A stretch of DNA of 43,690 bases from Patescibacteria group bacterium (GTDB taxonomy: Bacteria > Patescibacteriota > Minisyncoccia > UBA6257 > 2-01-FULL-56-20), in contig JBBTUL010000005.1 in assembly GCA_038063755.1 (NCBI GenBank), positions 1,358-45,047 on the forward strand, written 5' to 3'. This document shows positions 3,890-13,903 of the stretch, in pieces. Under the pieces are notes generated by a model. That model saw only the letters and a program-made list of their open reading frames with translations. It did not search any database and was not told the DNA's origin. Position 1 is the first letter of the stretch. Every line of letters starts with the position of its first letter. The translations under genes were made by a program, and so were the position numbers.

Positions 3890-4501
3890 CTACACGAGAG
3901 ATACCGCCGAAGGGCTTGCGGAGGAGAAGTCAACGCGCATCATCCCGCCGCTTTTTTTATCCGGCACCAGAAGCACTTTGTCTCTCACGTAGAGATCGTA
4001 GAGCTCTTTTGTAAGGCGGACATCTCCCAGGCAATACTCTTTAAGCTTTTCGATCTCTCCTCGCTCATAGAGTCCGATCGCTTCTCCTCCATGCATGTCC
4101 TTTTTTATTCCAAGATTTGCCTCCGCAAGACGGCTCAAGCTTACCCTCCCGCCATAAGCCTTCTCGATTTCCTCCAAAAGATCTATCCGGTTTTTGGTCC
4201 ACAGGTTGACATCATCACGATATTTCATTTTTTGGAAGTAAAGGTTCAAGACCGGCACATCGTATCGATTTGAGGCGAATCCTATGATCTTGTCGCTTCC
4301 GCGGAAAAGCTCGGCGGCAAGATCAAGCTCGTGCTCGTCGAAACACACATATTCGTTCTTGTTGTATGAATAGATACCAACGGCGGAAATCTTCAGAGCG
4401 CCAAAATTACCCCATCCCACGTCGGGATCGGTAAAAAAGTTCTGCGTTTCGATATCGAATACGAGGGTGTCTGGTTTCATGTGTTGCGTGTAGTGTTTCA
4501 T
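3890..4501 (-). CDS. RNase H-like DEDD 3'-5' exonuclease (RNase_H_2/YprB-like); alternative start at 4480
   Basis: Acidic motifs VFDIET, NRYDVP and YCLGDV. Confidence 0.8.
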   Translation of the reverse strand: MKHYTQHMKPDTLVFDIETQNFFTDPDVGWGNFGALKISAVGIYSYNKNEYVCFDEHELDLAAELFRGSDKIIGFASNRYDVPVLNLYFQKMKYRDDVNLWTKNRIDLLEEIEKAYGGRVSLSRLAEANLGIKKDMHGGEAIGLYERGEIEKLKEYCLGDVRLTKELYDLYVRDKVLLVPDKKSGGMMRVDFSSASPSAVSLV

Positions 4502-4503
4502 CC

Positions 4504-4645
4504 CTGCCGCACCTCTTTCGCTCGGGCGCTCCAGGCCGCTAGGCCGGTCTTACCCTCACTTCAAAGGATGCGGCAGAATTATTTCGTATATTTTCTTGCG
4601 CTACGCATCCTCCGTACTATAGGTTGGCACAAGAGGAGGTGTCAA
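4504..4645 (-). promoter_or_regulatory. Promoter and structured 5' leader of the exonuclease gene
   Basis: TTGACA (4640-4645)-18-TATAGT (4616-4621). Leader segments 4601-4613 and 4504-4518 are both complementary to 4563-4576. Confidence 0.55.
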
Positions 4646-4646
4646 T

Positions 4647-4682
4647 AAAAAATGCTATGCCCTCCAGGTCTCCCTGGAGGGC
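4647..4682 (-). terminator. Intrinsic terminator of the putative ncRNA
   Basis: GCCCTCCAGG-GAGA-CCTGGAGGGC stem followed by ATAGCATTTTTT. Confidence 0.75.
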
Positions 4683-5024
4683 GTTGTAGTTATAGTCGTC
4701 GACCGTGTGGTCAGCCCACGCTCATCGCCGGTGAAGGATTGCCGTGATGGTCCGGCTCAATCCTTTTTCTCACCAACGAAACCGGAGTTTCCTCGTCCCG
4801 TACTCCCTCCTGAGGGGTTTCGGGGTTCGATTGGCCTTCTGAGGGCGCTCTCCCTCCGGCTGTTGCGCGGAACAAACCTCCCTTGATCCTGCGTACCGGG
4901 TTTTGGTTCTCCCTGTCTCTGCGCCATGCGAGACAGCGAAGCGACGCTGACGCCCCTCTCCTGGCTTAAAATCTTTACTCTCGGCTGGCCAGGTAAGAGG
5001 CGGGGTCGTAGGCTTCAGATGCTA
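4647..5024 (-). ncRNA. Putative structured non-coding RNA of unknown class (~370 nt)
   Basis: Consensus promoter upstream, GC hairpin plus U-tract at 4647-4682, many hairpins between them, and only a weak 56-codon ORF with no SD. Confidence 0.65.
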
Positions 5025-5030
5025 TCGTCT

Positions 5031-5058
5031 ATTATAACAAACTATGCTAATTTGTCAA
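5031..5058 (-). promoter_or_regulatory. Consensus sigma70 promoter
   Basis: TTGACA (5053-5058)-16 nt-TATAAT (5031-5036) on the minus strand. Confidence 0.8.
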
Positions 5059-6468
5059 TCCTTCGACCTCGCTCAGAATTGACGCTGAGCCCGTCGAATG
5101 CGTCAATACCCCCCGGAGGCGCTCGGCTTCCCTTGTCATGATCTCTTTCGACGTCGCCTCAAGCGTGAATCGCAAAAGCGGTTCGGTGTTCGAGCCGCGA
5201 ACCGTAAACCAGTAATCCGGATACTCAACGCTTACTCCATCCAAAAAATCTTGTTTGCCGTCTGCATAAATCTTTTTCACTGTCTCTATTTTAGAGGAAA
5301 CCTCTTCCTTTGAATTGACACGGACGCTTGCCTCTTTTGAGTGCGCATATTTTAGAAATGGATTCACCGCTTCGGAAAGCGAAATATTTTTTTCCGATAG
5401 GCGAGCGAGAAGTTTTAGCACAAGAAGCATCGGGGCCTCAAAGATCCCACAGGGAAAAGAATAGTAATAATGCCCAGCGGCCTCGCCTCCGAAAACAGCA
5501 CCTTCTCTGATGATAGCCTCTTTCATATACGAACTCCCCACCCTACTCCGGACACGCCTTCCCCCGAATCTCTCCGCAACCTCTTCAACAATCCTCGACG
5601 GACCGGCGTCGCTCACGATCGCTCCTCCTGGATGCGCTTCGAGCTCGATTTCCGCAAGAATCGCGGCGAGTGCTTCGCTCGGAACAACACTCCCTTTTTC
5701 GTCAACAAAAAATATCCGGTCGCCATCTCCGTCCGGCGCGATGCCGAGGTCTGCATTTTCGCTCTTCACTTTCTCTTGTAGATACTTGATGTTCTCTTCC
5801 TTCGACGGGTCTATGCCGTGCGCGGGAAACGTCCCGTCAAGTTCGAAATTCATCGGAATGAAATCGCACCCAAGCCTTGAGAAGAGCGCCGCAAGATCAA
5901 GCGCCCCCATTGCGTTCGCGGCATCGGCAACAACCTTAAATGGTTTTATTCTTGACGGCGAAACAGTTCGAACAGCCTCTTCCACGCATGCGGCCAGAAT
6001 GCCTTCTCTTTTCTTCAGCGTCCCTCGCGCAGGAGAAATCATAAATCCTTCCTTTTCGATAATTGTCGCGATCTCTGCGATTCCGGTTTCTTTGCTCAAT
6101 GACTCTGCGTTTTTTCGCGTCATTTTCACTCCGTTCCATTCTTTCGGGTTGTGCGATGCAGAAACCTGAAGCCCGCCGTCGTACCCAAAGAAACCGACTC
6201 CGAAATAAAGCGTTGGCGTCGAAACAAGGCCAAGGTCGTCAACGTCTACTCCGCACTCAAGAAGGCCTTCGATGAGGCGTGTGTGTAGCTCTGGGCTTGA
6301 AACTCTTGTATCTCGCCCGACTGCGACCGAAAGCCTCTTCCCTGGATTTTCACGGGAAAGCAGCGTCGCATATGCTTTTCCTGCCGCGTAAACGGTATCG
6401 CCATTTATTTCGTTCGGGTATACTCCCCGAATGTCGTACCCGCGAAAAATGGATGGGTCAGCTTTCAT
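5047..6468 (-). CDS. Phosphomannomutase/phosphoglucomutase
   Basis: FRGYDIRG, SASHNP (phosphoserine), PDGDGDR (metal loop) and RGSNTEP. Confidence 0.93.
   Translation of the reverse strand: MKADPSIFRGYDIRGVYPNEINGDTVYAAGKAYATLLSRENPGKRLSVAVGRDTRVSSPELHTRLIEGLLECGVDVDDLGLVSTPTLYFGVGFFGYDGGLQVSASHNPKEWNGVKMTRKNAESLSKETGIAEIATIIEKEGFMISPARGTLKKREGILAACVEEAVRTVSPSRIKPFKVVADAANAMGALDLAALFSRLGCDFIPMNFELDGTFPAHGIDPSKEENIKYLQEKVKSENADLGIAPDGDGDRIFFVDEKGSVVPSEALAAILAEIELEAHPGGAIVSDAGPSRIVEEVAERFGGRRVRSRVGSSYMKEAIIREGAVFGGEAAGHYYYSFPCGIFEAPMLLVLKLLARLSEKNISLSEAVNPFLKYAHSKEASVRVNSKEEVSSKIETVKKIYADGKQDFLDGVSVEYPDYWFTVRGSNTEPLLRFTLEATSKEIMTREAERLRGVLTHSTGSASILSEVEGLTN
5054..5106. repeat. Pair of overlapping palindromic REP-like units within the 3' end of the PMM gene
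   Basis: GTCAAT-CCTTCGACCTCGCTCAGA-ATTGAC and TTGACGC-TGAGCCCGTCGAAT-GCGTCAA; translated in frame as THSTGSASILSEVEGLT. Confidence 0.65.
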
Positions 6469-13132: not shown

Positions 13133-13741
13133 CTACTGCACCTGGAGCGGGCACTCGGCAGAGAGTGCCGTGCCGAGTTCAAGGAATGTCAAGGCGAAAA
13201 ACATCTCCACCTCGACAGCTCGTCGAGTTAGTTTCTCGACGACCTTCGATACTGCTGGCGGGAAGAACATCCCGCCGGAAAACTGGAGGCTCACCTGCCC
13301 TCCAGAGACCTCCGTCCCGATATCCCGTAGGAGCGGGCTCTGAGACACCCGTTCCGCAGCTCCGTCGAGCCGATGAGCGGCCCGACGGAAGCAGGGAATC
13401 TCCTCCTTGCGGAGGAGTTCCCCCCGAAGCCGGTCGAGCAAACTCCACGGGACCCGCCGCGAACGCGACGCGACGGGGCGAAAGACAACCCACGCCGAAC
13501 CGTCGGTTCGTTCGGCGAGCCGGACAATCGTCGCCCCAGGGCGAATCCCGGCTCGCCACGCCGGCGAGCCGAGGACGACAAAACGAACAATGTCGCCCTC
13601 GCTGTCTGCCCCCATCCCGAAGGATGGCTGCAGAAGGCCGTGGGCGAGAGCCTTCGCGAGCTCGTCGCCGGCCGCCGCCTCCGCCGAAACGGTGCCTCCA
13701 AAAAGAAGGAGGCCGACAATCACCATCATCATGATTCGCAT
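13133..13741 (-). CDS. Secreted protein with PDZ-like segment
   Basis: AGGAGGAGG SD before ATG 13741, signal peptide ending AEA, VVLGSPAWRAGIRPG PDZ-like motif; visibly GC-rich. Confidence 0.65.
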   Translation of the reverse strand: MRIMMMVIVGLLLFGGTVSAEAAAGDELAKALAHGLLQPSFGMGADSEGDIVRFVVLGSPAWRAGIRPGATIVRLAERTDGSAWVVFRPVASRSRRVPWSLLDRLRGELLRKEEIPCFRRAAHRLDGAAERVSQSPLLRDIGTEVSGGQVSLQFSGGMFFPPAVSKVVEKLTRRAVEVEMFFALTFLELGTALSAECPLQVQ

Positions 13742-13903
13742 TCGCCTCCTCCTTTCGGAAAAGAAACTGCTTTTCACTTTTTTCTACGCTGTTTTCATGC
13801 TACCACTTATTAAGCTTTTGTCAAGTGTTGTTTCCTCCTCTTGACGCGCTGGCGTTTTTGGTACATCCTATCGAAAGCAATCGCACTTGAACTCGGAGGA
13901 TCG

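Follow-up and report, generated by a model that had tools for sequence, protein, structure and literature searches.

A candidate large structured RNA behind a consensus promoter in a groundwater Patescibacteria genome

The large RNA classes OLE, ROOL, GOLLD, raiA motif and HEARO are defined by many covarying homologues. In their general features they are stand-alone, GC-enriched RNAs of several hundred nucleotides, which form multiple hairpins and contain no open reading frame (ORF). Here we describe a unit with the same features in a groundwater Patescibacteria bacterium, whose genome comprises 868,523 bases in 17 contigs (98% complete, 49% GC). The unit lies between the gene of a phosphoglucomutase/phosphomannomutase (PGM) and that of a 203-amino-acid exonuclease, in a 43,690-nt stretch of contig JBBTUL010000005.1 (assembly GCA_038063755.1, positions 1,358 to 45,047). 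This whole stretch is called the window, and coordinates without a contig label refer to it (Table 1). Unlike the above classes, the unit is a single sequence, and it was not matched by any of their covariance models, either at gathering thresholds or at E<=10. We consider it about an even bet (probability roughly 0.5) that it encodes a structured non-coding RNA of ~375 nt, which is specific to the lineage, is transcribed independently and acts in trans.

The arrangement of the unit can also be compared with enterobacterial small RNAs of the MicL/DapZ type, whose promoter is located within the upstream gene or at its 3' end, and which are processed to short forms that act by Hfq-mediated pairing. 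The unit is like them in that its -35 box falls in the last PGM codons and the region doubles as the 3' untranslated region (UTR)/terminator region of PGM. It differs from them in being ~375 nt long and almost fully base-paired, and in showing no target complementarity beyond chance, the longest exact matches within the genome being 13-17 nt. The 17-nt identity, with C17:4200-4216, falls in the gene of a 1135-amino-acid protein, and we judged it to be due to chance because only six residues (GNSGFV) are common. The unit has no repeats or paralogues in its own genome. The portions available to us of the literature on structured and noncoding RNA, covariation and the signal recognition particle (SRP) in the candidate phyla radiation (CPR), including PMC8321541 and PMC10768705, describe no such RNA.

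The promoter and the transcription unit

A first-pass annotation, made from the nucleotide sequence of the window, had proposed a stand-alone RNA gene with a perfect promoter, and both elements of this proposal agree with our results. The -35 hexamer (5058-5053) and the -10 hexamer (5036-5031), separated by 16 nt, match the sigma-70 consensus at all positions, and a TG at 5039-5038 within the spacer extends the -10 box. The -35 box overlaps the final codons of PGM, the TAG stop codon of which is at 5049-5047. The same perfect pattern was found at 7 sites in the 868,523 bases of the genome, as compared to ~0.35 expected from base composition, and at 2-21 sites per genome in five relatives (reversed pattern: 0). 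One of the seven sites leads to the 16S rRNA gene, one to a tRNA-like gene, four to protein genes preceded by a Shine-Dalgarno (SD) sequence and one to the unit. Among the perfect-promoter loci fetched from the relatives, 11 had no early SD-led ORF, and three of these have 16S/23S rRNA genes downstream.

From this consensus extended -10 promoter the sigma-70 holoenzyme would initiate around 5025, the likely start being A5025 or A5023, 6-8 nt past the -10 box. The transcript would form at least four stable hairpins (H1-H4), perhaps within one closed multi-branch domain, and it would stop at, or be trimmed to, the GC-rich hairpin at 4682-4659 with its U run, so that the end would fall within the T run 4652-4647. 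Such an RNA would most likely act in trans as a stable protein-binding or scaffold RNA, and not as an mRNA or leader. The unit resembles the genome's own RNase P RNA and transfer-messenger RNA (tmRNA) genes in GC content (58.2% vs 58.7% and 53.4%, respectively, the genome average being 49%), in promoter type and in having a 3' hairpin; the TG-extended -10 box is also found at the RNase P RNA gene.

Table 1. Features of the PGM-exonuclease interval, listed from the upstream to the downstream gene (coordinates of the window).
Feature	Position	Strand	Description
PGM gene (upstream)	5047..6468	-	Phosphoglucomutase/phosphomannomutase; four PGM_PMM domains
Sigma-70 promoter	5031..5058	-	Predicted by promoter scan; TTGACA-16-TATAAT, 12/12 match
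Putative transcript, ~375 nt	4647..5025	-	Both ends inferred; 58% GC
Possible closing stem P1	4713..5014	-	AGCCUAC (5014-5008) / GUGGGCU (4719-4713); p 0.57, tentative
Irregular hairpin H1	4951..5002	-	CGCCUCUU.CCUGGC / GCCAGG.GAGGGGCG; 22-nt terminal loop; p 0.97-1.00
Hairpin H2	4913..4936	-	CUGUCUCGC / GC.GAGACAG; p 0.95-0.99
56-codon ORF	4757..4927	-	From ORF list; judged non-coding; no Pfam family, no homologue, no SD sequence
Hairpin H3	4797..4824	-	CCCG..ACCCCU / AGGG.GU.CGGG; AAA / AGUA internal loop; p 0.68-0.95
Long hairpin H4	4725..4779	-	UCGUUGGUGA-GAAAA-AGGAUU-GA-GCCG / CGGC-AAUCCU-UCACCGGCGA; two G-U pairs; p 0.86-0.96
3' hairpin	4659..4682	-	GCCCUCCAGG-GAGA-CCUGGAGGGC, then AUAGCA, then U6 (4652-4647); p 1.00
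Promoter of the exonuclease gene	4616..4645	-	Second promoter; TTGACA-18-TATAGT, 11/12 (promoter scan)
Exonuclease gene (downstream)	3890..4501	-	203 amino acids, RNase H-fold / PolB-exo-like 3'-5' exonuclease (domain search)

The region contains no credible ORF, as the first-pass annotation had also concluded. No ORF of at least 60 amino acids was found in the 700 nt scanned past the promoter, and the exonuclease gene starts ~530 nt downstream. We think it highly improbable, the least probable of the alternatives considered here, that the unit is a small-protein gene using the 56-codon frame or another short frame. The 56-codon frame does start with ATG, but there is no SD sequence 5-10 nt before this codon, the nearest purine-rich run being ~27 nt upstream, and the ATG sits in hairpin H2. 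The predicted product is of low complexity, and we found neither a Pfam family for the three internal ORFs of the unit nor a protein homologue of the 56-amino-acid product, whereas the neighbouring genes, as well as a mini-gene found in the equivalent position of the nearest relative (see below), have clear SD sequences. Reading TGA as glycine yields only low-complexity ORFs. Comparison of 16 six-frame translated pieces with 212 related loci (947 kb) gave nothing below E 0.2, and the unit has no translated similarity to the rest of the genome.

Since the unit and all three genes are on one strand, the region could also be a cis-acting element, either the 3' UTR/terminator region of PGM or a leader/attenuator of the exonuclease and cysteine desulfurase genes, in which the hairpin with the U run would serve as a conditional terminator. 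There is no PGM terminator before the unit, thus PGM transcripts must run into it, and GGAGGGAGU (4810-4802) can pair at 8 of 9 positions with the 5' arm of the hairpin, which makes it a possible antiterminator. Against this explanation stand the perfect promoter of the unit itself and the separate 11/12 promoter of the exonuclease gene beyond the hairpin. The latter promoter abuts the T run, starting one base after U6, and the junction reads TTTTTTATTGAC. Moreover, 117 nt separate the candidate antiterminator from the hairpin, and its pairing depends on repeated GGAGGG/CCCUCC words, a search for T-box, riboswitch or other leader families found no match at E<=10, and the exonuclease gene, which is kept in 117 of the 124 other genomes of the family (51-67% identity over full-length matches), is mostly without such an upstream element. 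We regard a cis-acting role as improbable, and favour the stand-alone non-coding RNA.

The predicted fold and the known RNA families

The first-pass annotation described the region as highly structured, and the folding calculations gave the same picture. The minimum free energy (MFE) of the minus strand between 5025 and 4645 was -154.1 kcal/mol, as compared to -126.6 +/- 6.7 kcal/mol for 100 dinucleotide shuffles, none of which was equally stable (z = -4.09); mononucleotide shuffles yielded a z of -4.8. Forty-six other 381-nt windows drawn from the same 43.7-kb stretch had a mean z of -0.75 (sd 1.47). Two of the 46 exceeded the z of the unit, one containing a tRNA-Leu gene and the other a gene of 69% GC.

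In the single-sequence predictions both the MFE and the centroid folds of the unit are multi-branched, with four separate hairpins, all of which reach a pair probability of at least 0.86 in the ensemble. P1, which must be taken as tentative, would enclose H1-H4 as a multi-branch domain. The helices proposed from the first inspection of the sequence were recovered only in part. Those formed by CCTGGC/GCCAGG together with CGCCTCTT/GAGGGGCG (0.97-1.00), CTGTCTC/GAGACAG (0.99) and CCCG/CGGG (0.95) are well predicted, and so is the long hairpin at 4779-4725 (0.86-0.96). In the full-length ensemble a probability above 0.5 was reached neither by the GAG-GAAA-CTC hairpin nor by the long-range stem of AAACCCGG with CCGGTTT, GAGGG/CCCTC had a probability of only 0.53, and the outer GAAGC/GCTTC closure competes with the stem 5014-5008/4719-4713 (0.57).

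The unit matched no known RNA family. None of the 4227 families of Rfam gave a match in the window at gathering thresholds that would cover it, and at E<=10 the segment 4450-5200 had only four chance-level matches, which were far below the gathering scores and included no relevant family. Among the universal RNAs, RNase P RNA type A (RF00010) is of comparable length and, in this genome, of nearly the same GC content, and the unit shares a few short words with it. In contrast to a genuine RNase P RNA, the unit had no covariance-model match even at E<=10, and nhmmer detected no similarity between it and the RNase P RNA of the same genome. The first reading had noted that the RNase P-like words were out of canonical order. 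This is correct, and we judged the words to be chance occurrences, the true RNase P RNA being the single genomic match, located on another contig at C6:14355-14853 (-) with E 1.3e-23 over the full model length. The latter RNA is 499 nt long, and its score on RF00010 was only 75.6 bits, as compared to the gathering score of 100, consequently it must carry large insertions.

The absence of tmRNA, SRP and T-box features, pointed out at first sight of the sequence, was confirmed by ARAGORN and the Rfam covariance models. ARAGORN found four tRNAs and no tmRNA in the window, RF00023 gave no match in the region, and the tmRNA of the genome was located at C12:80628-80983 (120.7 bits). The SRP RNA models (RF00169, RF01854) matched nothing in the region at E<=10 and nothing in the genome at E<=1. 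Neither PF02978 (Ffh M domain) nor PF00448 (the SRP54-type GTPase domain of Ffh and FtsY) was found in the genome, and a regular expression for the SRP-GTPase motifs had no match in its six frames. With neither Ffh nor FtsY present, an SRP RNA is excluded. SRP54-type GTPases were searched for in other genomes, too: of the 41 genomes sampled from the order, 8 gave only partial matches of P-loop length, and in the phylum sample none of 61 genomes, this one included, had a match at E<=1e-10. A search for SRP RNA in 30 relatives was negative. According to PMC8080830, SRP subunits are missing from many CPR bacteria, thus the absence of SRP in such genomes appears to be already known.

Among the universal RNAs this leaves 6S RNA as the sole one unaccounted for in the genome, and one may ask whether the unit is a very divergent representative. 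6S RNAs sequester RNA polymerase. Their sequence is poorly conserved, and they fold into a rod of ~180-200 nt with a large central bubble. A weakly conserved sequence would fit the failure of the homology searches, the promoter is strong, and no genomic match to RF00013 reaches the gathering score (the best one, 16.5 bits, is on another contig). However, RF00013 matched nothing in the region at E<=10, the unit with its ~375 nt is about twice as long as the model (187), its predicted fold is multi-branched and not a rod with a central bubble, and relatives of a universal RNA should have shown up in some of the 124 family genomes. It is very unlikely that the unit is a 6S RNA or another universal RNA in disguise.

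A sponge RNA of the CsrB/RsmZ type was also considered. The unit contains 14 GGA motifs, as compared to ~9 expected (hand count); CsrA (PF02599) was not found in the genome, and this candidate was rejected.

Homologue searches and the evidence against a functional RNA

A number of observations weigh against the interpretation of the unit as a functional non-coding RNA. Most of them concern the lack of homologues. BLASTN with the unit found nothing in 40 relatives, nothing at E<=0.001 in 400 genomes of the order, and in the 124 other genomes of the family only chance matches of 15-42 nt, which were distributed over 83 genomes (E 0.001-1). A recurrent 15-nt match in the family genomes, CCGGCGATGAGCGTG, proved to be a coding motif within membrane-protein genes. 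A combined nhmmer and blastn search was also negative; it covered 124 loci, of which 28 were syntenic loci from genomes, 80 came from metagenomes and 16 were others. Phage and plasmid collections contained no homologue, and two exact patterns searched for in viral contigs were not found there.

Two covariance models were built, each from a single sequence, R1 from 4831-4721 and R2 from 5018-4908. In genome-wide searches, which score only 0-9 first-look candidates per genome and are thus not exhaustive, R1 matched 3 of the 124 family genomes (E 0.013-0.028), all three matches falling within open frames of 224-863 amino acids, and R2 matched none. R1 found nothing in 39 relatives. When both models were applied with the filters off to 30 of the 65 perfect-promoter loci of five relatives, there was no match and no co-located R2-R1 pair. 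As a positive control, the RNase P RNA and the tmRNA of the genome were submitted to the same BLASTN procedure, which found the former in all 5 relatives and the latter in 4 of the 5. Because the control RNAs were found and the unit was not, the unit is not conserved in the way core RNAs are.

Variation within the population did not help, either. The stretch is present in 8 sequencing runs from two studies, all of DNA, and contig pieces from four runs had no sequence differences across the RNA region. These four runs are fragmentary yet identical over the RNA region, which indicates that their lower word shares reflect low coverage and not divergence.

The fold and the 3' end call for caution as well. 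The plus strand folds nearly as well as the minus strand (z -3.77), so that folding cannot assign the strand, and the choice of the minus strand comes from the promoter only. It must also be noted that a fold predicted from one sequence is no evidence for a functional structure. The strong terminator attributed to the unit in the first-pass annotation can be accepted only with a qualification. The hairpin is very stable, with a GC-rich stem of 10 bp (4682-4673/4668-4659). In a canonical intrinsic terminator the U tract starts 0-2 nt after a GC-rich hairpin, whereas here U6 begins 6 nt past the stem, and the terminator scan made no call; the structure is terminator-like, but not canonical. In this genome GC hairpins lacking a neighbouring U tract are also found after the RNase P RNA and tmRNA genes, therefore the unusual spacing is not a strong objection in this organism.

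The suggestion that the unit represents a new CPR class was not substantiated, as a search for homologues among CPR genomes turned up none, and there is neither a homologue nor covariation beyond the one sequence. It should be considered that these searches detect only relatives with similar sequence, and that the collections contain no close relative: the organism is isolated in them, the best PGM identity found among relatives being 50-52%. For these two reasons the suggestion is not refuted outright. A tentative proposal, in our view rather unlikely on present evidence, is that the unit founds a new kind of Patescibacteria RNA, which is large, structured and fast-evolving. If it were true, structured RNAs that are private to a lineage and highly expressed might be a regular component of variable slots in these ultra-small bacteria. 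They could act e.g. in dealings with the host or with phages, and family-based annotation would miss them because their turnover is faster than that of core RNAs. A real and functional RNA at this locus would add a large structured RNA without known relatives to a poorly understood group, whose genomes leave scant space for useless DNA.

The variable slot and the neighbouring genes

PGM and the exonuclease gene are syntenic in many genomes of the family, and the spacer between them varies from ~124 nt to 2.6 kb with unrelated contents. The gap upstream of the exonuclease gene is at most 122 nt in 16 of 19 relatives' loci, the exceptions being G069 (534 nt), G008 (434 nt) and G004 (236 nt). The first of these is the nearest relative (L203, G069:C35). 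Its slot is occupied by an SD-led ORF of 62 amino acids with 8 Cys and 62% GC, which ends in a GC hairpin followed by TTTTTTATTGAC, the junction being common to both genomes. The unit and the Cys-rich mini-gene are alike in their place relative to the exonuclease gene, in the hairpin + T6 + ATTGAC junction and in their raised GC content. They are unlike in that the unit has no SD-led ORF, and there is no sequence similarity between the two payloads. Because the two genomes have the 3' border in common, in which the hairpin and T run directly adjoin the exonuclease promoter, and differ in the payload, we regard the interval as a variable accessory slot. A location in such a slot between conserved syntenic genes suggests that the unit is an accessory element with fast turnover, outside the conserved set of Patescibacteria RNAs.

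The same observations can be accommodated by the main competing explanation, which interprets the unit as an accessory cassette of the 'moron' type, rich in GC, composed of a promoter, a payload and a hairpin, foreign or fast-evolving, and with a decayed or neutral payload. The transcript would then be functionless and its fold a by-product of the GC- and hairpin-rich composition. The variable spacer, the Cys-rich ORF with the same junction in the nearest relative and the lack of a homologue in any search are all consistent with this explanation, and so is the elevated GC content: 60-61% in the segment 4700-4999, with a second GC patch (69%) at 13133-13777. On the other hand, a genome of 868 kb would hardly retain a perfect extended -10 promoter on an insert that is dead, the translated comparison left no trace of a decayed ORF, the unit is not repeated in the genome and there are no mobile-element genes nearby, the surroundings being of a housekeeping character, with ClpB-like, cysteine desulfurase-like, dUTPase, dCMP deaminase and FtsK genes. 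The repeat search revealed neither terminal inverted repeats nor a sign of target-site duplication. The heptamer ATAGCAT is present at both ends of the unit; a 7-mer match at such distance is within chance. Weighing these points, we think that a decayed or neutral cassette is unlikely, though of all the alternatives it deserves the most attention, and we prefer to interpret the unit as a trans-acting structured RNA.

Some further observations were made on the surroundings of the unit. The exonuclease gene is conserved across the family. NCBIfam and PADLOC contained no family for it, and a search of the contig collection with the protein sequence returned one weak match. The 5' UTR of its gene is ~108 nt long (4502-4615, minus strand), and contains a GGAUGCG/CGCAUCC hairpin and a GC-rich segment before the SD sequence. 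In the nearest relative, further upstream of the Cys-rich ORF, an inverted repeat of ~27 nt flanks ~110 nt. The patch of ~69% GC at 13133-13777 (minus strand) carries an ORF of 214 amino acids with a signal-peptide-like N-terminus and a fold z of -5.3, and looks like a foreign or accessory gene.

The tRNA-like gene mentioned above as one of the targets of the perfect promoters is at G000:C15:3930-4044 (plus strand), and scored 38 bits on the tRNA-Sec model, which is below the cut-off. A sequence resembling this gene, also located behind a perfect promoter, is present in the relative G017 (L168).

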